From the UHGV virus genome UHGV-1547525: a DNA stretch of 22,008 nt. One strand, 5' to 3'. The translations under genes were made by a program, and so were the position numbers. A model generated the notes under the pieces. That model saw nothing but the letters and a program-made list of their open reading frames with translations. It made no database searches and had not been told where the DNA came from. Of this stretch, positions 648 through 18,881 are shown piece after piece. Origin of the DNA: a virus. Within the stretch, counting starts at the first letter, position 1. Each line of letters starts with the position of its first letter.

Positions 648-3600
648 TTAGCCACTTAATATTCCCCCATCACGTCGCATATTTAACAGATTGCCCTGCA
701 CCCGCTGATCAACCATCCCCATAAGTGCTTTTATTGCCTGAGGGCCAATCTCTCCATTCTGGCCGTCATTTTGAATAGTGATTTGGTATACAGGGGCATA
801 GGTAATATCTCCGCCTCCATTACCACTTTTACTATTAATAGCTCTGACACCAAGAGAACCATCGGAAGTTCGTGTTAATGGCATAATGGCTTCCGGTCCA
901 GCCTCACCAAAAACACCAGCCCCTTTTGCAAAAGCAAAAAATTGCGGGGAATCATAAATACCGTTCGAATACGTGCTCAATGACGGAGACTCATAAACAC
1001 CGCCCTTTGCATTCGGAATAAATTTACTAATAGCACTCCCGATAGTTCCTAAAATCCCCCCAGAAGAACTGTTACTAATGCTGTCGAAAATCCCAGTAAT
1101 TGAAGCCTTTAATGCCATTCGACTAAGATCCGAAATCACGGAAGTAGCGAAAGAACGAAAATTTACCTTGCCTGTCGTGACAAAATCACCCAGCGCATCG
1201 GTCATCCCATCAAACATCTGAGTCGTGGTTGATTTTATCTGCTCACTGATATCCTTAGTGTCATCCAGCCAGTTATTGAATCCCTGGGAGGCACCACTAA
1301 CCCAGTCTCCTGCCTGAATATCGAGCTGCTCGTTTTTCTGTCTGACAATTTCTTTTTCCCGTTCCAGAGCATCATTCAGAGCCTGCATTTTCTCTTGAAA
1401 AACATGATCTGACATTCCACGGGATTTATCTGCATAGTCACGTTCAAGTTGCAGACGCTGATTGTTATATCCATGTTCAATCCGCAGTAATTCCTGCTGG
1501 CGTTGCTGATTTTTATCGCCAACCCCATAACCAGCAATCTGAATATCATACCCCTGCTGACGATTATCAATCGAAGCCTGCAATGAATCACGCCATGCTG
1601 TTATTTCGGCGGATTCCTTGATTAGCCTGTTATTCTTTTCAATCGCAACATTTTTCTCCATCAACGCGGTTATTTCTTCCCGGTGTAAGAGAAGCGATTT
1701 CTGATCCTGGGTTAATTTCGATGATGGTCGTGACTCTAGGTCGGCAATCCGCTGACGCCACTTAACCAGTTCCTGTTCAGAGGAACTTAATTTAACGGTC
1801 AACTCAGCTTGTGAACTTAGTAACGCATTCTGTTGATTCAGATGATCAATCATTCGTTGGGCTGCATCATCAGAATAACCTTTCGCCTTTGGTTGCTTTG
1901 GATCTTTATAACGCTCATTTATTTGAGCGATAAGATTATTATATTCTTCCTTTGAATACTGATTCTTTAGCTTTTCCAGTTTTGCAAGTTCACTAGCTCT
2001 CTGCTGCTCCCGGGTCTGATATTGTTTTGAAAAGGCATCTGCTCTCTGTCTGAGTTCAATTCCTTCCTGTTGTCGCTTGTTGTAATCGTTTATTGATGAA
2101 TTTAGTACGTCCTGAGCAATTTTTTCTGCTTGAAGTACGCCCAATTGCTGCTTTAATCGTGCCAGCCTTTTATTTTGAGCTCCGCCATCTCCAATGCCAC
2201 CTAACCCGAAAACTCCGGGTCGGGTATTTTTTTCTATTTCATCAATTTGACGGAGAACATCTGAGATTTTTTGATCAAGGGAGGCCTCACGGCCAATATC
2301 CAGCATGGAATCCCATGCCCATTTTGCGGAGTCTGCGACAGCTTTCCATGCAGTCTCAAGATAACCAAGATTTTCTTTAATCTGGTTGGTGCGCTGGATC
2401 ATTGAGGATGAGTATTCTTCTGTCGCAATGCGGGCGGCCTCCTGCTGGTTCCCTTCATCCTGTAGTGCCTTAATCTGGTTATAAGTCGCAAGTGTCAGAA
2501 AATGGTACTGATCATTAAGTTTTGATATGGCACTGACAGGATCCTTTGCAATTTCATTGAAGTCATTAACCAGTTGTTCGGTTGATATTCCTGTTACTTC
2601 GCTCGTTTTTACTATCGCTGTCGTCACTTGCTCCAGCGAACTGCTCGCTACCTTTCCCGAACGCACAAGCTGATTTAATACTGCCGCCGCAGCACCAGTT
2701 GTCGAATCAGCCGCATTCCCGGCACGTTGAGCTATATCGCCCAATTGCCCGCTGGTTGTCCCCAACTGATTTCCGGTAAGAATAAGAGATTTATTAAATT
2801 CGTCCTGCTCCTGAGAGCCTTTATAGTAAGCCAGTCCTAAGACCCCAACGGCTGCTGCGGCCAGGGTAAAAGGATTAATTAATCCCAGCACATAAGAACC
2901 TACACCTTTGATCGCCGGGCCAATCCCACCGAACATATCTTTTAGCTGGCCGCCCTGCTGCATTAACACCATAAATGGCGACTGACCAGTGGACAACCCA
3001 ACAACAATATCCGTCATTTGTGCAGGCAACATGCGCATAGCAAAAGCCGTTTGTTTTGCCGACATTCCGGTTTTGCTTAATTGTGATTGAGTAACCTCAA
3101 GCTCACTCCGCATAGCACGAAGTTTTCCAGAAAGCTCCTCATACATTTCAGGAGAAAGCATCCCCTTAGCTTTTGCTTCATTGAGCTGTTTCTGTTGTTC
3201 TACCAGACGATTAAAAGCAGTTCCGACAGGATCAAGTTGAGCAATCAGACGTTGCAAAGCAACAACCTGTTCATCATGCGCTTTTGCTGCTTCTCGCTCT
3301 GCCTGAGCCTCTCCGGTAAGCTCTCGCCGTGTTTCCTGTATTTTTCGGCTATAATTCTCAAACTGAGAACCATTTATTTTCCCGGATGCAAACGCAGCAT
3401 TAAGTTCATCATGCTGTTGTTCAAGATTTCTTAGCGCCGCAGCCAGAGGGTCGATCTTGTCCAGCATTCTTTGAAAGGCCTGAGCCTGCGCTTCCTGCTG
3501 GGCGGCAGCAAGTTTTCCGGCCTTCTCGGCTTCTCTCTGCGCTTGCGCAACCCCGCTCAATTCCTCTGTGGTTTCATTAAGTTTACGGACAAGAAATTCA

Positions 3601-3881
3601 TATTCTTCTTTATCAATAAGCCCTTTATCGAAAAATTTCTTTAATTCAGAATAGCGTCGACCGACAGTATCAATTGCGGCACCAACTGGATCAATAGCTG
3701 CTTTTAATTTTGCGAGCGCGTTCTTCTCATCTTCTGTTGCCTTAGTCACTTTCCCTGCGCTATTTGCAGCAGTTTCCCCAGCCTGCGTCATTTTGACTAA
3801 TGAGGAGGTCAGATTGTCAGCATTATTTTTCGCTCCAGTGCTATCAATAATTATTGCGAGACGCGAGGTTTGCTCTGCCAT
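648..3881 (-). CDS. H: Tail tape measure protein (lambda gpH family)
   Basis: 1077-aa ORF. Internal [41 protein letters not shown] and C-terminal [13 protein letters not shown]...RRDGGILSG follow the lambda gpH pattern as I recall it. Long coiled-coil-rich body; lies directly upstream of M and L. Confidence 0.9.
3072..3695 (-). repeat. Three tandem ~55-80-residue protein repeats in the tape-measure N-terminal region
   Basis: Tape-measure residues ~63-270 contain three units sharing [IL]DP[VL]..A...L......L...F..G.I....Y......K...T..EL.G.AQA.REA.KA ([11 protein letters not shown]..., [11 protein letters not shown]..., [11 protein letters not shown]...). Confidence 0.5.
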
Positions 3882-3892
3882 TTATTAAAACT

Positions 3893-3923
3893 CCAGACAA
3901 CAAAAAGCCCACCGAAGTGGGTT
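3893..3923 (-). terminator. Intrinsic-terminator-like hairpin in the G-T/H intergenic spacer
   Basis: Minus strand AACCCAC-UUCG-GUGGGCU followed by UUUUUGUUGUCUGG; stem about 5 bp with one mismatch, so moderate. Confidence 0.35.
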
Positions 3924-4044
3924 TCAGGCGACATAATAGTAGATATAGCGATTACGAGGCCACGCAATGCTTTTCTCCAGGAGCATCATCGATTTAATTA
4001 AAGACACCATCACATCTCTGTAACAGAGTGTACGTAATTAACAA

Positions 4045-4365
4045 CTACACACACTGCTCCTGAAAATACTGGTCATCCAGTGCAAAGATCACTGCTTCAA
4101 ATTCATCGCGCTCAATCAATACCGGATGAGTGGCTAAATATTCATTTATCTCTGTCAGAGATAAAGGCAAAGGCACCCCAGCCATTCCAGCATAACGTCG
4201 GGCACGGGATATTACCGAATAGGCGTACAACAACTCCTTAAGCACCGGGTCTATTTCTGGTTCCGGTATCGGTGGCAACCTGAGTTTTTCTCGCTTCCAT
4301 CTTGCCTTTTCCCCCCTTTCTCCCCCGAACTCCGATAACCACCGCTGGGCAGCTATGGCTTTTTT
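4045..4365 (-). CDS. T-like extension of the tail assembly chaperone, expressed as a G-T fusion by -1 frameshift
   Basis: The -1 frame is open without stops from the slippery site at 4359-4365 to a TAG at 4045-4047 (...KKAIAAQRWLSEFGGERGEKARWKREKLRLPPIPEPEIDPVLKELL...). The ORF track shows only the TTG-initiated 77-aa part (4045..4278). Position immediately before the tape measure matches the conserved G/G-T arrangement. Confidence 0.7.
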   Translation of the reverse strand, partial: KKAIAAQRWLSEFGGERGEKARWKREKLRLPPIPEPEIDPVLKELLYAYSVISRARRYAGMAGVPLPLSLTEINEYLATHPVLIERDEFEAVIFALDDQYFQEQCV

Positions 4366-4814
4366 ATCGTATCCTGCTTCTGCTGCTCTTTACCCTGGGC
4401 GATGCTGGCTGCTTCTGCAAGGATCTGCCAGTACAACTCTGGATTCTGCTTAAGCAGCGCGATCCCTCGTTCTGCCGTATATTCCAGTGCAACCTCAACA
4501 CCATTAACCAGTTCACCAACCCCTTTCCAGTCTTTCAGCAGATAACGAGCGGCATTATCAATGAGTAAATCATCAACAGAATCCACCTCGGAAACCTTTG
4601 AAATATCAAACTCCTTCGTTCCGACGTGCAAACTGGCATCCATTTTCTCAATGTGGCGACGGATTAATGCATTACGGGAGCGATACTGATCGTTATCGCT
4701 GCTTGCCACCAACAGTTTTAACCCGTCTACAGGTTTTAAGTCCTTCATTGGCGTAAACCAGCGTTCTCCACCAATGATAATTTTCTGATTAAGAATAAAC
4801 ATCCATAACCTCAT
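4353..4814 (-). CDS. Tail assembly chaperone (gpG-like)
   Basis: 153-aa acidic ORF ending ...DTIKKP* with the slippery heptamer in its last codons. ATG at 4814, or ATG at 4802 which has a better GAGG Shine-Dalgarno. Sits between the major tail protein and the tape measure. Confidence 0.75.
   Translation of the reverse strand: MRLWMFILNQKIIIGGERWFTPMKDLKPVDGLKLLVASSDNDQYRSRNALIRRHIEKMDASLHVGTKEFDISKVSEVDSVDDLLIDNAARYLLKDWKGVGELVNGVEVALEYTAERGIALLKQNPELYWQILAEAASIAQGKEQQKQDTIKKP
4359..4365 (-). promoter_or_regulatory. -1 programmed ribosomal frameshift slippery heptamer A-AAA-AAG
   Basis: Minus-strand sequence GAT ACG ATA AAA AAG CCA TAG: an X-XXY-YYZ heptamer two codons before the G stop, with the -1 frame continuing open into the T region. 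Confidence 0.7.
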
Positions 4815-4894
4815 TCAATGCGTCCCCCTGTAGGGCAGTACCACAGGAGGAATAACGGAAAATCAACTAATCGCCTCAGCACTGGCTTTTGCGA

Positions 4895-5824
4895 TCACGG
4901 CAGCCGGGGAATTTTTTTTCTGGTTATCGTAGGTGCTTCATCTGCTGCGGTAATGCTCAATTGAACCTGGATAATGTCGCTATTACCCCCATCAGGCCAT
5001 TCACCTGACACCTGAACCTTCGGGAAACTGAAAGTGTATGCCCCCTCTCCATTCGAAAGCGTGAAGCTGAACGGAACTGTTTCTCCAGTCAGTGTTTTAC
5101 TCCAGATTTCCCACGCGGCTTTAGACCATGAAAGCGTCACCGTACCGGACGGTGTAAAAGTAGTCGGAATATTTGCTCCTGCATAAGGCGAGCCAGTCCC
5201 GATACAACGCTGTGTCTGGAGTTTGTTATCGAACTGAATATCAAAACTGTCGATACAAAAACCGTTACCTCCGGCAACACCATTCAGGCTTACTGCTGAA
5301 ACCTCCTTAAACGAATAACGTAGCTTTCCTGCACTATCCACAGGTTCGCCTTTGATAAAATTCGTATCATCGGCCTTTGATTCCCAGTCCAGTCCGGCAA
5401 AGGTTACGGTCGCTGTAATATCGCCGTCGTTAGGGATCTGCATTTTCCATGAGCCAACCTGCGCTCCTCTGACGACAGAGGCAATTCCGACATCGGACGC
5501 ATAGGTCGCCAGAGAAAATGTTATTCGCTCATTCCCCATTGTCAGAGAATCGCCTGACCATTCCGCGCCGAAACAGGATGCAAGAAAATCATCATGTTGA
5601 CCCCAGCGAAATTTGGTACCAACATCACCGCCGACATCCACAGTGCCAGGCGTCGCCCCCTGAGCCATCCGGGAGCCACCAATCTCATTATTTTCGCCTT
5701 TATTCTGGGTGGGTTTTACTCCCCAGCTTGTGCGTTTTAATAAACTCCAGTCACCACTTGCTGGCGTAGTGCCTGCAACCGTCTCCCGGATAAATGCCGA
5801 GATAACCTTTGCACCTGAACTCAC
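4895..5824 (-). CDS. Major tail (tube) protein, putative
   Basis: 309-aa ORF, GTG start at 5824 preceded by AGGAGG at 5-6 nt spacing. Gly/Thr/Ser-rich composition. Assigned by synteny (immediately upstream of the G/G-T chaperone genes); not lambda gpV-like in sequence. Confidence 0.6.
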   Translation of the reverse strand: MSSGAKVISAFIRETVAGTTPASGDWSLLKRTSWGVKPTQNKGENNEIGGSRMAQGATPGTVDVGGDVGTKFRWGQHDDFLASCFGAEWSGDSLTMGNERITFSLATYASDVGIASVVRGAQVGSWKMQIPNDGDITATVTFAGLDWESKADDTNFIKGEPVDSAGKLRYSFKEVSAVSLNGVAGGNGFCIDSFDIQFDNKLQTQRCIGTGSPYAGANIPTTFTPSGTVTLSWSKAAWEIWSKTLTGETVPFSFTLSNGEGAYTFSFPKVQVSGEWPDGGNSDIIQVQLSITAADEAPTITRKKIPRLP

Positions 5825-5850
5825 AGGAGCCTCCTATGTCATTAATTGCG

Positions 5851-6243
5851 CTAGAGCGCGCGATATGGAATTTGAAGATTAAGCTGGAACCAGCCATTCT
5901 TTTCGCCAACGGCTATTGAGGAAACAGCCTGGTAACTGAGACGATCGTCATCCTGAAACTCAAACAGTTCCCGCAATTTATCGGCTGTCTCAGTAATGAG
6001 TTTTGAACCAGAACCTGCGGGGACAAATAACTGAATAATGATTATCCCCGTGCGATAAACAACCGGCCCCGCGCCAATTTCATTAACTCCAGCCTGCCCG
6101 GGAATATTACTTAACCGCGCCCAGATTAACTTACCGGAAGGATCGAACGTTGGCGCGTTCGGATACAATACGTCTTTTCCATCAATAATCGTCTGTGCCG
6201 TCATTCTGGAAATAACCGTATTTCTGATTTCAGTAAACGTCAT
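5851..6243 (-). CDS. Tail terminator/completion protein, putative (by position)
   Basis: 130-aa ORF. Its ATG overlaps the stop of the upstream gene (ATGA coupling). Lies between the head-tail joining genes and the major tail protein. Confidence 0.4.
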   Translation of the reverse strand: MTFTEIRNTVISRMTAQTIIDGKDVLYPNAPTFDPSGKLIWARLSNIPGQAGVNEIGAGPVVYRTGIIIIQLFVPAGSGSKLITETADKLRELFEFQDDDRLSYQAVSSIAVGEKNGWFQLNLQIPYRAL

Positions 6244-6620
6244 TTGTAAGCCTGTAAAACACCATGAAAAGCGTTGGCATACACGCCAGTTGGCGCTTGT
6301 TGTGAATGACCGTTTTCAAGAGCCTCTGCATAAGGAAGGTTATTCTGGATATAAATAACTCCGTAATTTGCAGCTTTCGAAATAACCCCGATCCCACGCT
6401 GAACAGCAATCGTACCGTTCGGATCCACGTTATCAGATATACCAAAATCGGGATGCTGTAACGACACCAGGTTGTTATTTCTGAAACGTCCGGTATCAAC
6501 CGGAGCAGCAATATCAATAGCAGTAAGAATCTGAATAGCGATGTAGCGAATCTTCAGCCCTACATCTTCCTCAATCATCCCGGCAAATATTGACGGTTCT
6601 ATATCCCATGCCTTTGCCAT
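6240..6620 (-). CDS. Head-tail joining / tail component protein (HK97 gp10-like, tentative)
   Basis: 126-aa ORF in the head-tail connector block, directly abutting the neighbouring genes. The family call rests on size and position only. Confidence 0.4.
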   Translation of the reverse strand: MAKAWDIEPSIFAGMIEEDVGLKIRYIAIQILTAIDIAAPVDTGRFRNNNLVSLQHPDFGISDNVDPNGTIAVQRGIGVISKAANYGVIYIQNNLPYAEALENGHSQQAPTGVYANAFHGVLQAYK

Positions 6621-7004
6621 TTACGCTCTCCTTAACTGGATAGAGTAAACTGATGCGGAAGGATCTACACTTGCTGTAATTACCTCGTATCGTTGTAACT
6701 GCCTTGATACAGGATCATAAATCTCAATAATATGGTCGACAGCTGGTTTATCCGTAACCTCGCATACCAGAGCGGTTAATTTAAGGTCACCATGCAAAAT
6801 ATTAATCCCATCAATTCTGCCCAGCTTATAACGTGTCAACACGCCTCGCCCGGTATAGATTGCGGTGGATTCGCCGCCAGTTTCCGTCACAGGATCCCAG
6901 TGCCGGTGCGTAACGTAAGAACCAGAAAAATCACTCACGGCGTCCGCTAAATCCTCATCAAAAGCAGCGGCAACCTCTGACTGAATCTCTTCACGAAGCC
7001 CCAT
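6621..7004 (-). CDS. Head-tail adaptor / head closure protein, putative
   Basis: 127-aa ORF; its ATG at 7004 overlaps the upstream stop (ATGA). Position between capsid and tail genes. Confidence 0.4.
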   Translation of the reverse strand: MGLREEIQSEVAAAFDEDLADAVSDFSGSYVTHRHWDPVTETGGESTAIYTGRGVLTRYKLGRIDGINILHGDLKLTALVCEVTDKPAVDHIIEIYDPVSRQLQRYEVITASVDPSASVYSIQLRRA

Positions 7005-7399
7005 TATCCCCCCCTCACAACCCTGACTTGTGAGCGACTAAGTCCGTACGGTTTCAGCAGTGCTATCGCAAGCTGTAAATCGGGTTCAAGCAATGCAGTG
7101 CTGTTTGCTGGCAACTCAGAAAATGATTTCGATACACTGACCCCGTCAGCCGACACGGCTTTACTGATAACAACGCCAGAATCATTTTTCTGCTGAAACA
7201 ACTTACCGAATGAGGCAATTCTGGCTGCATATGCTCCCGCAAGTTTTACCTCTTCCGGAATACGGGATGGGTTAATTTTCAGGTTGAAGCCATTAAGCCA
7301 GGCATTAGCCATTAAAACAGCTTTATTTTTAGCGTTCTCACTCGTCCAGGCGTTCCCAAACGCATTATCAACGTCATCACAGGTCACGTAAGTGATCAT
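7004..7399 (-). CDS. Head-tail connector / DNA-packaging (gp6-like) protein, putative
   Basis: 131-aa ORF with ATG at 7399 preceded by AGGAG. Position just downstream of the major capsid gene. Confidence 0.4.
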   Translation of the reverse strand: MITYVTCDDVDNAFGNAWTSENAKNKAVLMANAWLNGFNLKINPSRIPEEVKLAGAYAARIASFGKLFQQKNDSGVVISKAVSADGVSVSKSFSELPANSTALLEPDLQLAIALLKPYGLSRSQVRVVRGG

Positions 7400-7402
7400 G
7401 TG

Positions 7403-7579
7403 TTACTCCTGAGTTTTCCAGCCCATAGCCTTCCAGTTGTCAACTTCATCAGGATGAACATTAGCGATAGTTGGTGCGCCGGGAAACATCTGATAATCGG
7501 TCACCATAACCACTAACTCAATTTGCGTTTTTTGTGCGGCTTCACGCTGTGCTCTTTGCTCTTTAGTTAATCCGGCCAT
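7403..7579 (-). CDS. Small hypothetical protein (58 aa), translationally coupled to the downstream connector gene
   Basis: Not in the ORF track. ATG at 7579 preceded by GGGGGG; translation MAGLTKEQRAQREAAQKTQIELVVMVTDYQMFPGAPTIANVHPDEVDNWKAMGWKTQE. Its TAA at 7403-7405 is followed by CAC and the ATG of the next gene, with AGGAG embedded in its last codons. Confidence 0.35.
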   Translation of the reverse strand: MAGLTKEQRAQREAAQKTQIELVVMVTDYQMFPGAPTIANVHPDEVDNWKAMGWKTQE

Positions 7580-7589
7580 ATGCCCCCCA

Positions 7590-7612
7590 TTAAAAATGGG
7601 GCCGAAGCCCCG
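7590..7612 (-). terminator. C(UUCG)G tetraloop hairpin with weak U-tract after the major capsid gene
   Basis: Minus strand GGGGC-UUCG-GCCCC followed by AUUUUUAAU, 10 nt after the capsid stop. Confidence 0.4.
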
Positions 7613-7621
7613 TTTGAATGT

Positions 7622-8761
7622 TTAACCAAGAATCAGACAACCATGTGCCGGCTTCACTGATGAAACACCCCATGCCAGTCCAACTTCATAGCGCACCTGG
7701 CGATACTGACGATACAGTGCAATCTGGAACGTAATCCCTGAAATCGGGTCCGTAACATTCATTACATCATCAGCATTATCGCCACCTTCCGGCATTGCCG
7801 GAGTACGGGATGCCAGCAGAAACGCGTTGCGATCAAACGCCATATTTGCCGTAAAGGCCCCAACAACTGTGATGGCAGTATCATCGGCCAGATCCTGACG
7901 CAGTCCGGGCGCTGCAAGAGTAATCAGATTGCTGGTCGCTGCTGCCACAACATACTGATTCGGATCACCAGCGAACGTAACAATCTGACCTGCAGAAATA
8001 CTCCCCGAACCAGTATCAATGGAAATAAGAACATCGCCTTCTTTTTTCTCTCCATTCACGAGATAACCAGTTGCAGCAACCTTTGGCGCTCGTTTCACAC
8101 CTGCCGAACTGTGAATATTGAATCCCTCCAGACGCCCCAACACGCCCTCACGCAGTAGCTGTTCAGTGCCGGATTCATTCACTTTAAACAATACAGACTG
8201 TTTTCCGCGCAAATTAGCAATGGCAGTGGAGCCAAGCACCATCTGCAGATCGGTTGTCGGTGCGCCGTTATCCTCCAGAACCTGACGAGCCAGAGCAGCA
8301 TCAGAAAGATCATCTTTAACACCAAACGGCGTTGTCCCTGCGGTTCCCACGGCGCGGGAAGCACCGAAATACAACGCACCAAGATCAGCCTCAACCTCGT
8401 TTGCAAGGGCGCGAAAAGCCTGCTTGAACTGATCAGCCAGAATGGTGTTGTAAGTCCCTGAAGGGCCAAGAGCCAGTTGTTCTTCACCATTCCATTTAAC
8501 CGGTGCCATTTTGGATTTAGTAATTTTTACATCAACAGTGCCAATATTTTGATCACCGGTATTCGGAGCTGACGGCCCCGGTACGATATCTTCGGTTTTC
8601 GCCTCAGGCGCAACTGGCGCGGTTACCGTCTGATCTTTTGCTGCGGCGTCAGCTTTTGCGTTTTTTGCTACCGCAGGGATAAAACCTACCTGCTCACGGG
8701 ATACAACATCCAGGGCGGTATAAATAGTCGGGATCAACCCGGTCAGGGTATTTCCAGCCAT
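7622..8761 (-). CDS. Major capsid protein
   Basis: 379-aa ORF from ATG at 8761 (AAGGA about 10 nt upstream; the ORF-track start at 8854 is an upstream extension). Ala/Gly/Thr-rich with an acidic/Pro-rich N-proximal segment. Lies after the scaffold gene and before the connector genes. Confidence 0.7.
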   Translation of the reverse strand: MAGNTLTGLIPTIYTALDVVSREQVGFIPAVAKNAKADAAAKDQTVTAPVAPEAKTEDIVPGPSAPNTGDQNIGTVDVKITKSKMAPVKWNGEEQLALGPSGTYNTILADQFKQAFRALANEVEADLGALYFGASRAVGTAGTTPFGVKDDLSDAALARQVLEDNGAPTTDLQMVLGSTAIANLRGKQSVLFKVNESGTEQLLREGVLGRLEGFNIHSSAGVKRAPKVAATGYLVNGEKKEGDVLISIDTGSGSISAGQIVTFAGDPNQYVVAAATSNLITLAAPGLRQDLADDTAITVVGAFTANMAFDRNAFLLASRTPAMPEGGDNADDVMNVTDPISGITFQIALYRQYRQVRYEVGLAWGVSSVKPAHGCLILG

Positions 8762-8859
8762 AATTAAATATTCCTTAAAAATTTGCGTAATTGTGAATAG
8801 ATGGAGTAATGAGCTATCCAGCCCTGACACCAGCTCCCATCCGGAAGCTGACAAATGTG

Positions 8860-9624
8860 TTAATCAACGATTGTGATACCGTCTTTCAATGCGTTTTGCT
8901 TACCTGCAACATCCAGTGCATCAAAAGCAGAGCGTTTCATCGTTTTCTGACCAATATCATGCTGTGTCGGACGGGAGCCGCCGCCATTGTTGCCACTGGC
9001 TTTCAGGATGTAGTCTTTCTGAGGGTAATTTTCGACAAGGAACTCCAGCGCCTCATCAAACTGCGCCAGTTCGCCAGGCTTCGCGCGGGAATAAATTTTG
9101 TTGCCGGAAGCGTCATAAGCAACGATCCTCCCTTCTTCCACTTTGAATGCCTGCCCGAAGCGGGCTTGTAATAAATCTGCCGGGATCGCAATTTTATCGG
9201 CAATATATTTTGAACCCGCAAAACTACCGCCAATCATAGAATCGTAAAGCTGCTTCTCCAGCATCTGAGAGCGTTGCTTTTCTTCATCTAATTGCTGCTG
9301 AAAATTTTTCGTAATTTCTGCCTTAACCTGGTCAACCTGTCCCGCATCGAGCAGCTTTTTCTGGTCGATTTTTGACAGCATTTCCAGTGCCTCGATCGCC
9401 TTCTTCGGGTCTTCGATAGCGGCAAACTTAGCCAGTTTTTCCTCTGCAGCTTCTTTAGCCAGGCGATGATTTTTTGCCTCGCCATTAAGCTCTGTAATTT
9501 TTTTTGTCGCCAGCGGTGCATCGAAGCCAATTTCTTTACCATCGTCGTGCACATAAACTGGCAGGCCAGCAGTATCAATTTCTGCGTATTGTTTTCCGTT
9601 AATCTCGACCGTTTTCAGTTTCAT
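8860..9624 (-). CDS. Capsid scaffolding protein, putative
   Basis: ATG at 9624 (MKLKTVEINGKQY...) with AGGT Shine-Dalgarno; the ORF-track start at 9696 is an upstream extension. Charged, coiled-coil-like middle (KKAIEALEMLSKIDQKKLLDAGQVDQVKAEITKNFQQQLDEEKQRSQMLEKQL). Position between the Mu-F-like gene and the capsid gene. Confidence 0.55.
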   Translation of the reverse strand: MKLKTVEINGKQYAEIDTAGLPVYVHDDGKEIGFDAPLATKKITELNGEAKNHRLAKEAAEEKLAKFAAIEDPKKAIEALEMLSKIDQKKLLDAGQVDQVKAEITKNFQQQLDEEKQRSQMLEKQLYDSMIGGSFAGSKYIADKIAIPADLLQARFGQAFKVEEGRIVAYDASGNKIYSRAKPGELAQFDEALEFLVENYPQKDYILKASGNNGGGSRPTQHDIGQKTMKRSAFDALDVAGKQNALKDGITIVD

Positions 9625-9669
9625 ATTAGTACCTGGTTTAAGTCTTCCGACAGTTACGCTGCTCACCAT

Positions 9670-9700
9670 CCGGATCGCAGCAATAAAAAAGGCCACCCGA
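9670..9700 (-). terminator. Intrinsic terminator / attenuator hairpin with UUCG tetraloop
   Basis: Minus strand GGCUACC-UUCG-GGUGGCC (7-bp stem with one G-U pair) followed by UUUUUUAUU, between the Mu-F-like gene stop (9729) and the scaffold start (9624). Confidence 0.55.
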
Positions 9701-9728
9701 AGGTAGCCTGTTGTAATAAATGATTTAT

Positions 9729-10844
9729 TTAAATCCCTGCTTTTCTGAATACCTGTGCATCACGCTCACGGAGCTGCTTCAGCGTCAGCCATTCGCCTTT
9801 ATCGGTGTAAAATTCATCTGGCGACATACCACCATCCCGAATCAGCTTTGCTCGGGTTTCCCCCACAATCTGTTTTTGTCTGGTGTAAGGCTGACGCAAA
9901 AACCATTCCCTGTAGGTTGTATCTCCGGCCACCACGCCATCCATGCTGGCCCGCTCAGCCGGGGAAATATCGCGAACATCAATACCCAGTTCCTTCGCTG
10001 ATTTCAGAATGAACGTTTCCGTTGAGCGGCAGCAGAAATGAATTTTTCCCGGCCCCTGCAAATAAGGCACGCTGTGACCTACAGGTTTATTATTCAGCGT
10101 ATATTTGAGGCGATCCCTGATTCGACATTGTGGCGTAGTACGATTATCAAGCGTTGATAACCATTGCTTACCCTTAATCAAATCATTATTCGCGCTGGCA
10201 AAACTCTCACGGGCAGTAGCAGCAAGATGTCCAACCGCTGTTTTTGCAATGCTGGCCGCATTAGCCCGGCTCATCTGCAATGCACCATCCTGAAATCCCT
10301 TACTGACATGTCCCCGAATTTTTCTTGCGATCTGCTCATTGGTATCCCCCAACAAAAAACCCTGACGCACCGTATTTGTTATGCGTCTGAGCCGATCCGC
10401 CTCAAGATCTGAGGCCCACTCACTGAGCAGTCGTCCCTGGAATGGTCGCGCCATTGCAGCGGCATAAAGTGCATCAGGAGAGATACCAACCAGAGGGTGA
10501 ACATCAGCAACAAAATCAGGTAGCATAGAATCAAACAGACTTAACTGATAACCAGCCTCATAAACTGCCAGCTCGTTCAGCTCTCCGGAGAGACTGGTAA
10601 ACATGCTGTTAATAGCAGTGCGGTTAACCTTTCTGACGCTCGCCAGAAGTGACTCCAGGCGCTTAACGGTAAAATTACCTGGATCGAGGCTGTCCAGTGC
10701 TATCAGCAGGCGAGCAGTAAGTTCCGCATCGCTGTCATTCAGTATTTTCACCATTCTGGCAGCCACGCCAGTGCTATAGCGGGATATCCAGACTGCATGA
10801 GCAATTGATTCATCACGCAGCCGTTCATTCACGGTTTGCATCAT
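9729..10844 (-). CDS. Head morphogenesis protein, Mu F-like / SPP1 gp7-like minor head protein
   Basis: 371-aa ORF immediately after the portal gene (20-nt overlap). Size and position match the portal-associated Mu-F-like family; the family call is from recollection of that family's architecture. Confidence 0.7.
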   Translation of the reverse strand: MMQTVNERLRDESIAHAVWISRYSTGVAARMVKILNDSDAELTARLLIALDSLDPGNFTVKRLESLLASVRKVNRTAINSMFTSLSGELNELAVYEAGYQLSLFDSMLPDFVADVHPLVGISPDALYAAAMARPFQGRLLSEWASDLEADRLRRITNTVRQGFLLGDTNEQIARKIRGHVSKGFQDGALQMSRANAASIAKTAVGHLAATARESFASANNDLIKGKQWLSTLDNRTTPQCRIRDRLKYTLNNKPVGHSVPYLQGPGKIHFCCRSTETFILKSAKELGIDVRDISPAERASMDGVVAGDTTYREWFLRQPYTRQKQIVGETRAKLIRDGGMSPDEFYTDKGEWLTLKQLRERDAQVFRKAGI

Positions 10845-12231
10845 TGATTTCCATCAGCATTACACTCTGATTTTTTAATTCATCGATCACTTCCTCTGGA
10901 CGGGAATCCTGATCGATAAATTTCAACGCCTGCAACACCCGAACCGCATCAATCTGACGTATATCACCGCCCTGACGCAATGACTGAACAGCCAGCGCGG
11001 AGGATGAGTCAAACACCTGGGCAGATACATCCAGTTCAGTGCGCACATCCACATTGCCACCGCAACTCTCTCCGATCCATTCCGCCATTATCTGGAGAAT
11101 ATTATCGAGGGCATCTTCGAGGGAGTTCGCCATTGTATAAAGCGGCGAGTTTTCCTGCATTCGCTCTTCATTAGTCTGATCAACAGATTTGGTGGATGTA
11201 TTTTCAGCACGCAGAAGTTTAGCGCCGGCATGACGCATCTGATTTTCCAGCTTCTCAAGTGATGTTTCGCCAGATTCTATCGCTGCGCCACTATGTTCAA
11301 CATATTCGAGGCCATTTTTTGTTCTGTCCTCAAAAATCGTAGCGGTGGATGCACCAACCGTCAGTTCTTCATTCCTGTCCAGCCCGTAGGCCACCAGCAA
11401 TGGAACGCGGGTAACATGAAGAATATTGTCCTGCTCGCTCTGGCTTTGCCAGTGCTTGATATTCAGCAAGCCAAGATTAAGCAATGGCGGTGTACCACGC
11501 ATAAATCCTGTTTTCTTCGTGTACAGTGTTACCAGAGGAATATCATCACGGCTGGTATTCCATGACTCATGAAGCGTCCAGACAGATTCGCCATTAGTGC
11601 CTTCGCTACGTCGATAAATTTCAACTCGACGGGGCATAATATGGCGGATCTGCTCCACCTTCTTCTGCCCGAAATCATCACCATCAATAATGATGACCTC
11701 TTTTATACGCAAATCAGTGAGAACAACTTTCCCTTTTTCAACTTTCGATTTCCATCCAATAACCTGGCGTGGATTCAGCATCGTAACGTACGGACGACCA
11801 CCGGTCGCGTTTTCATCGGCTTTTGTACGAATCTCTTTCATATCCGTTCGTGGATAGTCCACCAGCGCATGTGCCACACCATACTGAAATGCGAGGCTGA
11901 AAAATTGCTGCGCCCACACATCCAGTCGGCTCCCCTCCATGTCGATATTTTCTGCATATTCCCTGATTTTTGCCGGCGTTTCCTCACTCAATACTGTCGG
12001 CTCTGCAAATATGCGCCCAATATTTTGCTTGATGCTTTCTTCATACACAGGAAGTAGCGTAGCCACAGACAGGCGTTTTTTATAAGCGTCTTCATCTTCG
12101 TTAGGCCATTTTGGGAGATAATTTTCCCCCTGCCTGCGCATTTCAAGCGTACCGCCCATCAGTGCGTCGTTAATATCCCACGCCTCCAGCATATCGTTAT
12201 AGTCGAGGTTGGGTGTTGATATATCAGCCAT
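10825..12231 (-). CDS. Portal protein
   Basis: 468-aa ORF starting 2 nt after the large terminase stop. Acidic protein of typical portal size, located between terminase and the Mu-F-like gene. Confidence 0.75.
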   Translation of the reverse strand: MADISTPNLDYNDMLEAWDINDALMGGTLEMRRQGENYLPKWPNEDEDAYKKRLSVATLLPVYEESIKQNIGRIFAEPTVLSEETPAKIREYAENIDMEGSRLDVWAQQFFSLAFQYGVAHALVDYPRTDMKEIRTKADENATGGRPYVTMLNPRQVIGWKSKVEKGKVVLTDLRIKEVIIIDGDDFGQKKVEQIRHIMPRRVEIYRRSEGTNGESVWTLHESWNTSRDDIPLVTLYTKKTGFMRGTPPLLNLGLLNIKHWQSQSEQDNILHVTRVPLLVAYGLDRNEELTVGASTATIFEDRTKNGLEYVEHSGAAIESGETSLEKLENQMRHAGAKLLRAENTSTKSVDQTNEERMQENSPLYTMANSLEDALDNILQIMAEWIGESCGGNVDVRTELDVSAQVFDSSSALAVQSLRQGGDIRQIDAVRVLQALKFIDQDSRPEEVIDELKNQSVMLMEINDANRE

Positions 12232-16654: not shown

Positions 16655-18112
16655 TTAGGAGCGCCAAAAAAAACCTGAAAACAATATAATAACAGGATAA
16701 ATTTCAAGGCGACCAAGAATCATAGCTATGCACATTAAATATTTTGCAATGTCATTAAGCACTCCGAATGACGATGCAGTAGCCCCAAAACCTAATCCCA
16801 TATTATTAATACATGCAGCCACTGTTGCAAATGATGTAAGAAAATCATATCCCATACCATTTAACACCAGTATAAAAAACACCGTGAAGAGAGTATAAAG
16901 AAAAAAGAAACTCCATACAGACCTCATTACACGATCTGTAACTATCTTCCCTCCTACATTTACACTCAACAACGCTCTGGGATGAGAAAGCTGATTTATC
17001 TCGTGTTTGCTTTGTTTGAAAAGTATAAGAAATCGAAGTGACTTAATTCCACCACAAGTTGAACCTATACATCCCCCAAAGAAACTTGACGACAGCAAAA
17101 ACACTATCGTGTGCGTGGGCCAGTTTGCATAATCCTGCGTAGCTAAACCATTATCAGTGAGCATGGAGCTGGCAAGAAAAAACGAATGAATAAAACTTCC
17201 ATGCAAGTCATACATACCTATATGCCAGACCTGGAAAGAGGTAACAATGATCACCCCTAAGGCTATTAACAGAAAGAAACGAAGTTCAATATCTCTGATT
17301 AAAGGTTTTATCGTTTTCCTGCTAATAACAATATACCAAAGAGTGAAGTTGAAAGCCGATAGCAGGGAAAAAGAACCAGCCACCAGCTCAACCAAATAGT
17401 TATTAAAATATCCGATACTCTCGCTATGAGTTGAGAAACCACCAAGCGAAACTGTGGAAATCCCGTGACAAATAGCATCAAACAAAGGCATTCCTGCAAG
17501 TCTATAACAGACAATACAAGCAATACCTAATAAAGAATAAGTTATCCACAGTGTCCGTGACGTATCGGCCAGGCGGGGAGTGAGTTTGTCATCCTTAAAT
17601 GGCCCCGGCATTTCTGACTGATAAAGCTTTGCACCACCAATACCCAATAATGGCAATACAGCAACCGCCAGAACAATAACTCCTAAACCACCTATAAAAT
17701 TTAACTGTGACCGATAGTACAAATATGCCCGAGGTAATGAACTAACATCATCAATTACAGTTGCTCCTGTTGTTGTTATTCCAGAAACCCCTTCAAACAG
17801 AGCATCAATGAACGTTAAATTAAGTTCTGAGTCAATCCATAAAGGGAATGCACTAATAACAGAAAACAAAATCCAAAACATTACAATTATAATAAACCCA
17901 TCACGGGTACGTAATTGAATGCCAGATTTCTTAGTTGTATACCACGCTCCGCCACCAATGCAAAAAAATATAACGAAAGTTATAAAGAAAACGAACAGGC
18001 TTTTTTCTTTATAAAACAATGCTACAACCATTGGTGGCAACATTGAAAGACTATAGAGCCAAACCAGGAACCCACACATATGAGTAACAACTCTTACATG
18101 AGATGTATTCAT
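16655..18112 (-). CDS. trkG: Trk-family potassium uptake membrane protein (TrkG of Rac-type prophages)
   Basis: 485-aa polytopic membrane protein from ATG at 18112 (MNTSHVRVVTHMCGFLVWLY...); the ORF-track start at 18130 is a TTG extension. TrkH/TrkG-like repeated pore-loop architecture. Visibly AT-rich relative to the flanking phage genes. Adjacent to Rz/Rz1 remnants, as I recall for E. coli K-12 Rac. Confidence 0.8.
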   Translation of the reverse strand: MNTSHVRVVTHMCGFLVWLYSLSMLPPMVVALFYKEKSLFVFFITFVIFFCIGGGAWYTTKKSGIQLRTRDGFIIIVMFWILFSVISAFPLWIDSELNLTFIDALFEGVSGITTTGATVIDDVSSLPRAYLYYRSQLNFIGGLGVIVLAVAVLPLLGIGGAKLYQSEMPGPFKDDKLTPRLADTSRTLWITYSLLGIACIVCYRLAGMPLFDAICHGISTVSLGGFSTHSESIGYFNNYLVELVAGSFSLLSAFNFTLWYIVISRKTIKPLIRDIELRFFLLIALGVIIVTSFQVWHIGMYDLHGSFIHSFFLASSMLTDNGLATQDYANWPTHTIVFLLSSSFFGGCIGSTCGGIKSLRFLILFKQSKHEINQLSHPRALLSVNVGGKIVTDRVMRSVWSFFFLYTLFTVFFILVLNGMGYDFLTSFATVAACINNMGLGFGATASSFGVLNDIAKYLMCIAMILGRLEIYPVIILFSGFFWRS

Positions 18113-18249
18113 ATCTAAATATTCTTTCAATTATAACCACCTTGCTGCAATATTATGATTATACTGTATAAAATTTAACTCCTCTTAGATCTTACTTCAC
18201 TGTTCCTTATGAAACAATCATCAAAATGAATCATATTGTAGTTAAGATT

Positions 18250-18699
18250 TTACTTTAAACACTGCTCGGTTATGTATTGCTGAGCACCTTCAAGTTGGGC
18301 CTGCATCATTACCAGTCGTTCCCGGAGGGTGAAATAATCCCGTTCAGCGGTGTCTGCCAGTCGGGGGGAGGCTGCATTATCCACGCCGGAGGCGGTGGTG
18401 GCTTCACGCACTGACTGACAGACTGCTTTGATGTGCAACCGACGACGACCAGCGGCAACATCATCACGCAGAGCATCATTTTCAGCTTTCGCATCAGCTA
18501 ACTCCTTCGTGTATTTTGCATCGAGCGCAGCAACATCACGCTGACGCATCTGCATGTCAGTAATTGCCGCGTTCGCCAGCTTCAGTTCTCTGGCATTTTT
18601 GTCGCGCTGTTCTTTGTAGGCGATGGCGTTATCACGGTAATGATTAACACCCCATGACAGGCAGACGACGATGCAGATAACCAGAGCGGAGATACCAGA
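18250..18699 (-). pseudogene. rzpR: Rz (i-spanin) remnant lacking its 5' end and start codon (rzpR-like)
   Basis: From ...[33 protein letters not shown]... through [47 protein letters not shown]...EQCLK the translation tracks lambda Rz as I recall it. The similarity breaks about 7 codons in, and there is no in-frame ATG/GTG/TTG upstream before a TGA. Confidence 0.8.
18309..18494 (-). CDS. rzoR: Rz1 (o-spanin) lipoprotein, embedded in the Rz reading frame
   Basis: 61-aa [59 protein letters not shown]... with lipobox-like VVGC and a proline run, matching lambda Rz1 as I recall it. Embedded in the +1 frame of Rz. Confidence 0.8.
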
Positions 18700-18766
18700 A
18701 TGTCTCGATTCTAGGTATTCCGCCAGGAATCTCGTTCCAGAAATGAAACATCAGGTTCGCCAGTAC

Positions 18767-18798
18767 CAGAAACAACAAAACCCGCTCAATGGCGGGTT
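18767..18798 (-). terminator. tR'-like intrinsic terminator downstream of the Q-like gene
   Basis: Minus strand AACCCGC-CAUUGA-GCGGGUU followed by UUGUUGUUUCUGG, about 85-115 nt after the Q-like stop. Confidence 0.45.
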
Positions 18799-18881
18799 CT
18801 GGTAAAGTTCATGCGCTTGGTTCGCCTCGCGATACAGCTTTGCGAAGCATACCGGAATTGAAGCAGTTTATGCGTAAAAAA

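Follow-up and report, generated by a model that had tools for sequence, protein, structure and literature searches.

The late operon of UHGV-1547525 is punctuated by three C(UUCG)G hairpins with U-tracts (H2, H1 and H3), which are probably intrinsic terminators within a single late operon: Q-modified polymerase would read through them, unmodified polymerase would stop, and stable 3′ hairpins would be left on the RNA. The stretch of DNA analysed here (the window, 22,008 nucleotides) is a Rac-type lambdoid prophage of E. coli with a Q-like antiterminator gene, and the hairpins are of the ordinary terminator type already annotated in HK97, P22, lambda and HK639. Termination, read-through and stabilisation are all functions that we infer from the sequence.

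Gene context of the late operon

The structural genes concerned all lie on the minus strand. A MuF-like head morphogenesis gene (9729–10844; PF04233, phrog_241) stands upstream of H2 and is followed by a scaffolding protein gene (DUF6651; 8860–9624; PF20356, phrog_784/phrog_206), whose start at 9624 is the same as in the SE11 annotation, and by the major capsid protein gene of the P22 coat family (P22_CoatProtein; 7622–8761; PF11651, phrog_283). Further along lie a 58-aa ORF (7403–7579; phrog_1514), which starts just past H1 in the same position as P22 orf69, the chaperone G/GT gene (4045–4814) and the tape measure gene (648–3881). Pfam and PHROG matches bear out the MuF-like, scaffold, major capsid and tape measure assignments made in an earlier note on this DNA.

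Upstream of the late operon hairpins is a Q-like gene (18882–19424/19544), assigned to DUF1133 and to phrog_753 ('anti-termination protein Q-like'); its product matches the known Q family PF06530 weakly. The region of this gene includes a promoter-like site (18947–18918), and a tR′-like terminator (18769–18801, minus strand) lies about 80 nt downstream of the gene. Together, the terminator and the Q-like gene would provide a context for Q-dependent read-through, if Q antitermination activity is assumed, and they make the Q-modified transcription proposed in the earlier note reasonable. Holin and endolysin genes have been lost from this copy, so the hairpins may not be in current use here.

Anatomy of the three hairpins

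Exactly three C(UUCG)G hairpins with U-tracts occur on the coding (minus) strand, and a search of both strands for UUCG hairpins of at least 5 bp followed by a T-tract returned H1, H2 and H3 alone. The earlier note had placed all three within a few bases on the correct strand, except that the span it gave for H2 (9670–9700) was off by about 10 nt. H2 (9682–9709, minus strand) consists of the stem-loop AGGCUACC-UUCG-GGUGGCCU at 9709–9690 and the tail UUUUUUAUU running to 9682, with the U-tract UUUUUUAU(U). It begins 20 nt past the MuF-like stop, directly before the scaffold leader, and has an energy of −13.2 kcal/mol; with its invariant U6 tract it is the most canonical terminator of the three. 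H1 (7589–7611, minus strand; −9.6 kcal/mol) reads GGGGC-UUCG-GCCCC at 7611–7598 with the tail AUUUUUAAU to 7589, 10 nt past the major capsid stop and 9 nt ahead of the start of the 58-aa ORF. H3 (3898–3921, minus strand) reads CCCAC-UUCG-GUGGG at 3921–3908 with the tail CUUUUUGUUG to 3898, and lies 124 nt past the GT chaperone stop and 17 nt ahead of the tape measure ATG. At −7.2 kcal/mol it is the weakest, as had been anticipated in the earlier note.

Rho-independent terminators have a GC-rich stem of about 5–14 bp and a loop of 3–8 nt on the transcribed strand, and all three hairpins show this architecture: the stems measure 8 bp (5 GC) in H2, 5 bp (5 GC) in H1 and 5 bp (4 GC) in H3, each on the minus strand with a 4-nt loop. 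The loops all read C-UUCG-G, that is, the cUUCGg (UNCG) tetraloop closed by a C-G pair. The accompanying U-tract is expected to be a U-rich run of about 7–9 nt starting at most 2 nt from the stem, which we scored as 5-of-8. By this measure the tract of H2 is canonical, and those of H1 and H3 are imperfect yet pass.

Such hairpins are rare by chance. First-order Markov simulation puts the mean at 0.04 per strand, with none of the 1000 simulated sequences containing as many as two, and H1, H2 and H3 all fall inside the 521 nt of non-coding sequence that make up 3.2% of the structural operon. We also folded segments of 70–80 nt enclosing each hairpin, but their z-scores (−0.1 to −1.6) did not reach significance; hairpins of this length are too short for the test, and the motif-level simulation took its place. 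Significance is thus carried by the motif-level test and by conservation, not by folding energy. An Rfam release 15 search of positions 3500–11000 on either strand gave nothing better than E=0.5, and none of its hits fell at the hairpins or the leaders described below.

Related hairpins in known phages

The three hairpins sit where stem-loops of lambdoid late operons are found: H1 after the capsid gene, H2 before the scaffold leader and H3 before the tape measure gene. In HK97 (NC_002167), putative terminators flank the major tail gene on both sides, and others precede the protease-capsid genes, follow the capsid gene and precede the tape measure gene. As in the window, these are tetraloop GC hairpins on the coding strand of a lambdoid late operon with a single promoter, and their positions include the three kinds taken by H2, H1 and H3. 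The HK97 head genes (HK97 protease, HK97-type capsid) are, however, non-homologous to those of the window, and the loops differ, with GAAA, AGAU and others. The major tail gene of HK97 is bracketed too, whereas the tube gene of the window has only a downstream hairpin, lacking a U-tract.

Further counterparts are found in P22, HK639 and lambda. The P22 record (BK000583) annotates a stem_loop after coat gene 5 and likens its location to the HK97 and lambda stem-loops. This hairpin, GGGGC-UGCG-GCCCC followed by UUUCUUUAU, differs from H1 by one loop base and, as in the window, precedes a small ORF; the P22 capsid protein belongs to the same Pfam family as that of the window but is distantly related (Pfam E=1e-12). 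Unlike in the window, the P22 scaffold gene has no upstream terminator or structured leader, the gap being 13 nt. HK639 (NC_016158) provides a direct homologue of H2, an annotated terminator between its head morphogenesis and scaffold genes. Its capsid protein is 75% identical to that of the window, a leader with GGA hairpins follows the terminator, and a homologue of H1 is present but unannotated; it differs in a small membrane-protein ORF inserted upstream of the terminator and in its tail module, where the major tail gene is flanked by terminators. In the Q-dependent late operon of lambda, the E-to-FI hairpin GGCCC-UUCG-GGGCC directly follows the capsid gene and has the C(UUCG)G loop of the window hairpins, but the capsid gene is unrelated to that upstream of H1 and the U-tract is weak (AUUGUUUCU).

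The UUCG loop itself is a common one. Tuerk et al. in 1988 and d'Aubenton Carafa et al. in 1990 are reported to have described C(UUCG)G tetraloop hairpins as prevalent among the intrinsic terminators of E. coli and in the intercistronic regions of phages, and H1–H3 share their loop, closing pair and intercistronic or terminator contexts with no specific difference. UUCG is the usual loop of enterobacterial terminators, and it would give maximal stability to short stems. Away from the H1 and H2 sites, the related loci contain 52 terminator-like hairpins with tetraloops, of which 16 have U(N)CG loops, the commonest tetraloops there. The shared loop is therefore a general terminator habit and not a shared element.

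Conservation of the hairpins

H1 and H2 are retained in some 40–50 distinct relatives whose capsid proteins are 71–100% identical to that of the window. H2 covaries: among 29 distinct relatives, 94.8% of pairings are kept and five pairs have changed on both sides, against 0 of 500 shuffles, and the U-tract columns (U6) are invariant. The loop varies freely (UUCG in 15, UCCG in 13 and others in 13 in our loop census), which, together with the frequency of U(N)CG loops elsewhere in related loci, speaks against reuse of one tetraloop as a specific signal, as the earlier note had it. The MuF-scaffold junction is an insertion hot spot among relatives, and H2 remains adjacent to the scaffold leader despite 150–500 nt of extra DNA inserted upstream.

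H1 is near-invariant in sequence in 28 aligned distinct relatives, with well-kept U-tracts. It thus shows conservation rather than covariation, and a sequence-specific role is possible. Of 51 distinct post-capsid sequences, the loop census scored 42 as carrying a terminator-like hairpin, with a UUCG loop in 35 of these; among the nine left unscored, at least four are artefacts of greedy stem extension, judged by eye. Acinetobacter phage qsb1, with 53% identity in the capsid protein, has a hairpin identical to H1, and analogous post-capsid hairpins occur in phages with capsid proteins only 31–53% identical. A translational switch was also considered, in which the 3′ arm GCCCC pairs with the G-rich Shine-Dalgarno region of the 58-aa ORF (CCCCAUU-UUU-AAUGGGG). 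RNAfold favours this alternative in a 71-nt context; the alternative hairpin has an energy of −8.1 kcal/mol against −9.6 for H1. The GGGGGG run, however, is limited to the variant in the window; in the remaining E. coli variants and in every other relative the sequence is GGAGG(G), a far poorer pairing partner. We consider such a switch very improbable indeed and rejected the pairing as not conserved in relatives.

Is H1 tied to capsid genes beyond its relatives? The exact 14-mer of H1 is present in more than 120 viral contigs. Of the 57 ORFs that end immediately before it, we estimate that about 20 encode major capsid proteins, with at least eight PHROG families represented. Seven of these were confirmed member by member, and the remainder rests on family counts and similarity to confirmed members. 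The share is stated as an estimate because the alignment used for the PHROG scan omitted 21 of these 57 ORFs, which were duplicates or obviously non-structural. Subject to that estimate, the exact H1 hairpin appears to follow major capsid genes preferentially in unrelated phages. Scanning viral contigs with the scaffold protein alone brought up mainly near-identical E. coli prophages and contributed little further diversity.

In relatives with the same gene order, where the earlier note expected the hairpins to recur, H1 and H2 are present, but H3 is confined to those with 97% identity or more. In SE11 and Shigella, the H3 variant has a longer stem. In other relatives, the same junction holds inserted lipoprotein-type genes (morons) or terminator-like hairpins of unrelated sequence, and the HK97 terminator at the equivalent junction is annotated after, and belongs to, the gp15 moron. 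In the window, a 28-aa ORF (4010–3924) terminates 2 nt before H3, and a search for a moron promoter found no promoter-like site on the minus strand.

These features of H3 invite a reading in which the hairpins, and H3 especially, are relics of modular evolution: terminators of formerly independent transcription units or lost morons, left behind where modules meet or recombine and without any function in late gene expression today. The hot spot at the MuF-scaffold junction would fit such a history, as would Paraglaciecola virus JLT2, in which the capsid gene ends a transcription unit and the hairpin lies between convergent genes. H1 and H2, however, are maintained at 71–75% capsid protein identity, and H2 with compensatory substitutions, which indicates ongoing purifying selection and not neutral persistence. 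For the set as a whole we regard an origin as mere relics as quite improbable.

Possible roles in late transcription

What could be the role of these hairpins in a late operon? H2 and H1 bracket the scaffold-capsid pair, and H3 occupies what would be a slot for morons, past the tail chaperone genes and ahead of the tape measure gene; the expectation that the hairpins mark boundaries of abundantly needed structural genes was borne out. The essential head-completion and tail genes downstream appear to have no promoter of their own, so the polymerase expressing them would have to read through H2, H1 and H3. Such read-through would be expected of Q-modified RNA polymerase, which suppresses hairpin-dependent termination. 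Polymerase lacking Q, arising from spurious initiation, in the prophage state or from morons inserted upstream (relatives have such insertions), would stop at the hairpins, and stopping it would insulate the scaffold-capsid genes. In the read-through late transcript the hairpins would still fold, and endonucleolytic cutting in an A/U-rich tail would turn each into a barrier to 3′ exonucleases. H1 would then give the scaffold-capsid mRNA segment a protected 3′ end, perhaps with a modest drop in downstream transcription. Neither part of this scheme covers everything: stabilisation does not really account for the retention of a strong terminator, H2, ahead of the genes whose products are needed in greatest amount, and insulation does not explain hairpins that bracket abundant-protein genes in unrelated modules.

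A design in which a terminator is followed by a new promoter is unsupported in the lambdoid members, since a promoter scan and inspection of the alignment revealed no convincing sigma-70-like promoter between H2 and the scaffold ATG. This design is visible in Vibrio phage SSP002, where terminator and promoter-like sequences precede the capsid gene. A terminator inside the late operon has been described at the end of the procapsid module of the P22-like phage L (PMC8022706, 2020); its authors call the roles of such terminators unknown and propose either partial termination or blocking of non-antiterminated transcription.

The first of these two proposals corresponds to that of the earlier note, in which even Q-modified polymerase would terminate in part at the hairpins: a constant share of transcription would stop at each and thereby set the molar ratios of scaffold, capsid and downstream proteins. 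H1 lies where attenuation would raise capsid mRNA above head-completion and tail mRNA, its exact hairpin is strongly associated with capsid genes, and terminator-like post-capsid hairpins also occur in lytic relatives with no known Q systems, SSP002 among them. Classical analogues point the same way: T7 Tφ, past capsid gene 10, and the f1/M13 terminator, past coat gene VIII, each lie right behind the gene for the most abundant virion protein and raise its mRNA above all others. Those systems use other polymerases or promoters, and experiments have shown termination in them, whereas at the window hairpins it is predicted. H2 speaks against this account. It lies upstream of both scaffold and capsid genes, where partial termination would lower, not raise, the very mRNAs that are most needed, so it cannot set their abundance in the way proposed. 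The U-tracts of H1 and H3 are, moreover, imperfect, HK97 and lambda have hairpins without U-tracts at homologous positions, and Q-type antitermination is generally known to suppress intrinsic terminators efficiently. We therefore find attenuation of the modified polymerase a rather doubtful explanation.

Alternatively, the hairpins could be purely elements of RNA stability or processing, with termination irrelevant. RNase E would cut in the A/U-rich tails and segment the late RNA, and the scaffold-capsid segment would gain a protected 3′ end from H1 and a structured 5′ end from the GGAU hairpins past the H2 tail. The conserved structured leader immediately past H2 is consistent with this, as are the hairpins that bracket the capsid and major tail genes in HK97 and HK639. 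Hairpins without a good U-tract also occupy homologous positions after abundant-protein genes (after the major tail gene of HK97, between E and FI of lambda, and at 4850–4824 after the tube gene of the window), which suggests, on the terminator account as well, that selection acts on the hairpin as such. If the hairpins were exonuclease barriers and nothing else, neither the invariant U-tract of H2 nor the well-kept U-tracts of H1 would be needed, and we judge it unlikely that stability is the whole function. Terminators that Q-modified polymerase reads through, and that leave stable 3′ hairpins, remain our preferred explanation.

Structured leaders of the scaffold and capsid genes

The leaders of the scaffold and capsid genes share a paralogous module of two hairpins with invariant GGA(U/A) loops and no match in Rfam. 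In the scaffold leader (9642–9681, minus strand), the module reads GCUGC-GAU-CC-GGAU-GG-UGA-GCAGC (9681–9658) followed by GUC-GGAA-GAC (9651–9642). In the capsid leader (8811–8852, minus strand), it reads GUCAGCUUCC-GGAU-GGGAGCUGGU (8852–8829) followed by GGGCU-GGAU-AGCUC (8824–8811). A model built from capsid leaders only (R1) matches the scaffold leader at 9634–9692 with E=1e-4. The capsid leader shows covariation, with 95.7% of pairings kept and 11 of 15 pairs changed on both sides (0 of 500 shuffles), and the GGA loop bases are invariant. Across the whole window, hairpins with GGAW loops are not enriched (5 against 6.4 expected); enrichment appears only when the count is restricted to the two leaders across loci.

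Several short hairpins with GGA in the loop within a 5′ leader are reminiscent of CsrA/RsmA sites. Clusters of such sites comprise at least two GGA motifs in loops or single strands, 10–63 nt apart, usually as A(N)GGA and with one overlapping the Shine-Dalgarno sequence. The leader GGA sites are 24–26 nt apart, and the capsid gene has the Shine-Dalgarno sequence AAGGAA, which fits the pattern; that of the scaffold gene in the E. coli group is AGGU. The leader core CGGAUG is the same as in hcnA/RsmE. Unlike CsrA/RsmA sites, the hairpin sites read C/U-GGA and lack an A two bases before GGA, and the GGA occupies positions 1–3 of a strict tetraloop. A literature search for links between CsrA and phage capsid or scaffold genes returned nothing usable.

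We tentatively propose, with somewhat less than even confidence, that the scaffold-capsid pair is a post-transcriptionally autonomous cassette bounded by two terminator hairpins, and that its leader modules may form an undescribed translational operator for a dimeric RNA-binding protein, coupling synthesis to assembly or to host physiology. Host CsrA and the free scaffolding protein of the phage are candidate binders of this putative operator. The latter would act much as P22 scaffold synthesis is autoregulated, a control that is long known and molecularly unexplained; our searches of the literature on that autoregulation and on the 3′ ends of lambda late transcripts yielded nothing usable. 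The GGA-loop leader module is more novel than the terminator hairpins, and it more plausibly handles the balance of scaffold to capsid than they do.

Implications

For the hairpins, our analysis is mainly a tidy confirmation: intrinsic-terminator hairpins in lambdoid late operons, especially after the capsid gene, are recurrent and conserved. Comparison adds (i) the near-invariance of H1 across Enterobacterales; (ii) the covariation of H2; and (iii) the estimate that about one-third of ORFs preceding the exact 14-mer in unrelated viral contigs appear to encode major capsid proteins. Together, these make a good case for selection and for a tie to genes of abundant virion proteins. HK639 and inducible Rac-type prophages are tractable systems in which to address the role of the hairpins. 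The GGA-loop module, if it is a true protein-binding operator, would provide a concrete RNA target for the control of scaffold and capsid balance in phages.

Three UUCG hairpins in a prophage late operon

The earlier note had described three C(UUCG)G hairpins with U-tracts in the late operon, and we found all of them on the minus (coding) strand, in agreement within a few bases. H2 (AGGCUACC-UUCG-GGUGGCCU followed by UUUUUUAUU; hairpin 9709-9690, tail end 9682; -13.2 kcal/mol) lies between the MuF-like and scaffold genes, H1 (GGGGC-UUCG-GCCCC followed by AUUUUUAAU; 7611-7598, tail end 7589; -9.6 kcal/mol) follows the major capsid gene, and H3 (CCCAC-UUCG-GUGGG followed by CUUUUUGUUG; 3921-3908, tail end 3898; -7.2 kcal/mol) precedes the tape measure gene. 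All three fall in non-coding DNA, which makes up 3.2% of the structural operon. A scan of both strands found no other UUCG hairpin in the window that combines a stem of 5 bp or more with a T-tract; Markov simulation predicted 0.04 such hairpins per strand, and none of 1000 simulations produced two or more.

Based on Pfam and PHROG scans and on the RefSeq annotation of a 99.9% identical E. coli SE11 region, we identify the window as a Rac-type lambdoid prophage. Of 5426 complete E. coli genomes, 1212 contain related DNA. All relevant genes lie on the minus strand, in this order: a Q-like antiterminator gene (DUF1133 / phrog_753, 18882-19424), a truncated Rz (18250-18555), the trkG moron, an inserted extra gene (16655-18130), a MuF-like gene (9729-10844) separated from trkG by ParB-like, terminase and portal genes, a scaffold gene (DUF6651, 8860-9624), a P22-family major capsid protein gene (7622-8761), a 58-aa ORF (7403-7579), then head-tail and tail genes, the tail chaperone genes G/GT (4045-4814), and the tape measure gene (648-3881).

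Two further hairpins on the coding strand are strong and terminator-like, and their roles are obvious. The first, at 16568-16535, is the strongest hairpin of the window (-18.9 kcal/mol; segment z = -3.96); it sits in the 137-nt gap between trkG and the ParB-like gene and is presumably the moron's own terminator. The second is tR'-like (18801-18769) and lies 80 nt after the Q-like gene. A promoter-like site at 18918-18947 (minus strand) overlaps the end of that gene, about 110-140 nt upstream of the hairpin. Together the two resemble a late control region of the PR'-tR' (6S-RNA) type serving a Q protein of the DUF1133 type.

Several local features of this copy were also recorded. The lysis cassette is absent at 18130-18882 (minus strand), where the C-terminal two thirds of the Rz spanin (18250-18555) are the sole remnant between the Q-like gene and trkG; the corresponding stretch of SE11 holds tolA-like genes, essD, rrrD and a gene for a lysis protein. 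Because the cassette is missing, this prophage copy is probably lysis-defective. Near the 3' end of the tail tube gene (4908-4923, minus strand), the window has a homopolymer of A8 versus A9 in SE11, which shifts the frame: the window ORF stops at 4895 (309 aa), the other frame about 33 nt further on (320 aa). This difference may reflect a true polymorphism, a slippery site or an error in sequencing. Immediately past the tube gene, 9 nt upstream of the chaperone G start, lies an 11-bp hairpin without a U-tract (CCUCCUGUGGU-ACUGCCC-ACAGGGGG, 4824-4850, minus strand), which E. ruysiae retains with a change on one side. The Shine-Dalgarno sequence of the 58-aa ORF (7583-7588, minus strand) is GGGGGG in the window, whereas the other E. 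coli variants, like all remaining relatives, have GGAGG(G). The window sequence allows the 3' arm of H1 to pair with it as an alternative. Finally, most of the gap between the GT chaperone gene and H3 is occupied by a 28-aa ORF (MVSLIKSMMLLEKSIAWPRNRYIYYYVA, 3924-4010, minus strand) that stops 2 nt before H3. It may be a mini-moron or a remnant, and a search for its promoter found none.

Conservation and known counterparts

Scanning one genome per species gave 37 loci (Escherichia, Citrobacter, Serratia, Providencia, Photorhabdus, Erwinia, Enterobacter, Kluyvera, Gilliamella, Tolumonas and others) with capsid proteins 71-100% identical to that of the window, and further loci were added from viral contigs and phage records. 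After the capsid stop, H1 is nearly sequence-invariant and is followed by the U-tract, Shine-Dalgarno sequence and ATG; rare but informative variants include a compensatory GGGGA-UUCG-UCCCC, the loops UACG, UGCG and CUCG, and two 5-nt loops. Acinetobacter phage qsb1, whose capsid protein is 53% identical, has a hairpin identical to H1, and Pasteurella Pm86, Paraglaciecola JLT2 and Vibrio SSP002 (31-48% identical) carry other terminator-like hairpins at this position. H2 stays in place in 41 of 42 distinct sequences. Its stem shows compensatory substitutions, with 94.8% of cells paired and five pairs changed on both sides; none of 500 shuffles was as good, and slid controls scored far lower. 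Its U-tract is invariant and its loop variable. Among relatives with the same gene order H1 and H2 are kept, whereas H3 is limited to those at least 97% identical, with a longer-stem version in SE11 and Shigella; elsewhere the GT-tape measure junction holds inserted genes or unrelated hairpins. The hairpins are a real and conserved feature.

The junctions of H2 and H3 are insertion hot spots in the relatives. Between MuF and scaffold, loci L010, L014, L021, L023, L026, L027, L029, L031-L035, L038 and L039 carry 150 to 600 nt of extra DNA upstream of H2 (in HK639, a small hydrophobic ORF), and H2 still lies directly upstream of the scaffold leader. Between GT and tape measure, insertions occur in L003, L005, L012, L017, L019 and L021, with lipoprotein-like ORFs. 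In Vibrio phage SSP002 (L043, 2151-2362), apparently lytic, the scaffold-capsid gap contains a UUCG terminator (AAAGCCACC-UUCG-GGUGGCUUU) and then a near-consensus promoter-like TTGACG ... TATAAT; with another terminator after it, the capsid gene may form a separate transcription unit in this distant relative.

H1-H3 belong to a known and already annotated kind of element. The HK97 RefSeq record places putative terminators upstream of the protease-capsid pair, downstream of the capsid gene, on either side of the major tail gene, and between the gp15 moron and the tape measure gene, just ahead of the latter. In the curated P22 record, a stem_loop right after coat gene 5 carries the description 'similar in location to stem-loops in phage HK97 and phage lambda'; this stem-loop (GGGGC-UGCG-GCCCC followed by UUUCUUUAU) differs from H1 in a single loop base. 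In lambda, GGCCC-UUCG-GGGCC follows gene E, and in the HK639 record the homologue of H2 is listed as a terminator. In the phage L genome, a terminator inside the late operon, at the end of the procapsid module, was proposed to act by partial termination or to block transcription without antitermination (PMC8022706).

Does reuse of the same tetraloop mark one element? Of the 52 tetraloop terminator-like hairpins counted on the coding strand of the related loci outside the H1 and H2 sites, 16 have a U(N)CG loop. The shared UUCG therefore reflects a general terminator habit of these genomes, in agreement with the E. coli terminator literature, and gives no evidence for a single element used at all three sites.

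The exact 14-mer of H1 (GGGGCTTCGGCCCC) occurs in at least 120 IMG/VR contigs. Among the matches listed, a T-tract follows in 66 of 127, and in 57 of these 66 an ORF of 80 aa or more ends no more than 90 nt upstream. A PHROG scan of 36 of these 57 listed ORFs, which left out duplicates and obvious non-structural proteins, was dominated by major head proteins from at least eight different families, plus a major tail family; 11 of the 36, checked member by member, included seven capsid proteins, one major tail protein and one virion structural protein. Counting the omitted duplicates, we estimate, rather than measure, that about 20 of the 57 listed are capsid proteins. A capsid gene is roughly one phage gene in 50-100, so this estimate implies a large enrichment, which supports the earlier suggestion that such hairpins accompany highly expressed structural genes. 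The H1 sequence is a generic solution, probably a convergent one.

Mechanism

How would the hairpins act? Their anatomy, position and conservation, and the presence of the Q-like gene, were obtained directly. Because no promoter was found in the window for the essential genes downstream of the hairpins, productive late transcription would have to read through all three sites. Q-modified polymerase passes terminators; unmodified polymerase would halt at H1-H3, and in the read-through RNA the hairpins would remain as barriers to 3' exonucleases. On balance, we favour this combined account, a read-through terminator acting as insulator and 3' stabiliser. Some hairpins at equivalent positions lack the U-tract (after the HK97 major tail gene, between lambda E and FI, and at 4850-4824 after the tube gene of the window), suggesting that the hairpin itself matters. 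The proposal that partial terminators set scaffold/capsid stoichiometry fits the position of H1 but not that of H2, which lies upstream of the genes needed most; the original interpretation is thus partly supported.

A GGA-loop module in the scaffold and capsid leaders

Both leaders, from the H2 U-tract to the scaffold ATG and from the scaffold stop to the capsid ATG, contain a two-hairpin module: a longer hairpin is separated by 3-6 nt from a short one that follows it, and each has a GGAU or GGAA tetraloop (scaffold leader, 9681-9658 and 9651-9642; capsid leader, 8852-8829 and 8824-8811; minus strand). In the relatives, including L003-L039, the GGA loop bases are invariant and the stems covary: 95.7% of cells are paired in the capsid leader, where both sides changed in 11 of 15 pairs, and 90.4% in the scaffold leader, where nine pairs did so (0/500 shuffles matching in each case). 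In relatives whose scaffold-capsid gap is only 13-17 nt, the capsid copy is missing and the scaffold leader contains a third hairpin, with a GGAA loop. A covariance model trained on capsid leaders alone matched the scaffold leaders of nearly all loci (E 1e-10 to 1e-4), with no other significant match in 469 kb and none in lambda, P22 or HK97. The two modules are paralogous. GGAW-loop hairpins occur at 14.4 per kb in these leaders versus 0.26 per kb elsewhere.

Two side observations concern the relatives. A site about 25 nt inside the portal ORF (L006, L018, L020, L022-L025, L027, L029, L031-L033, L035, L036, L038, L039) may reflect a coding constraint or be one more GGA-loop site. The contig L037 (NZ_JBFAKK010000033.1, Phytomonospora sp. 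by its label), 9 kb long and part of an actinomycete assembly, carries an enterobacterial-type capsid gene (82% identical) and a GGAU capsid leader; it is probably a contaminant.

An Rfam search gave no match for the module. The leader core CGGAUG resembles CsrA/RsmE sites but lacks their usual A at -2. The module could be a candidate protein-binding operator, either of CsrA-like sites or for scaffold autoregulation; Shine-Dalgarno-like standby sites and 5' stabilisers are other possible roles. This leader module is the part of the result that deserves follow-up.
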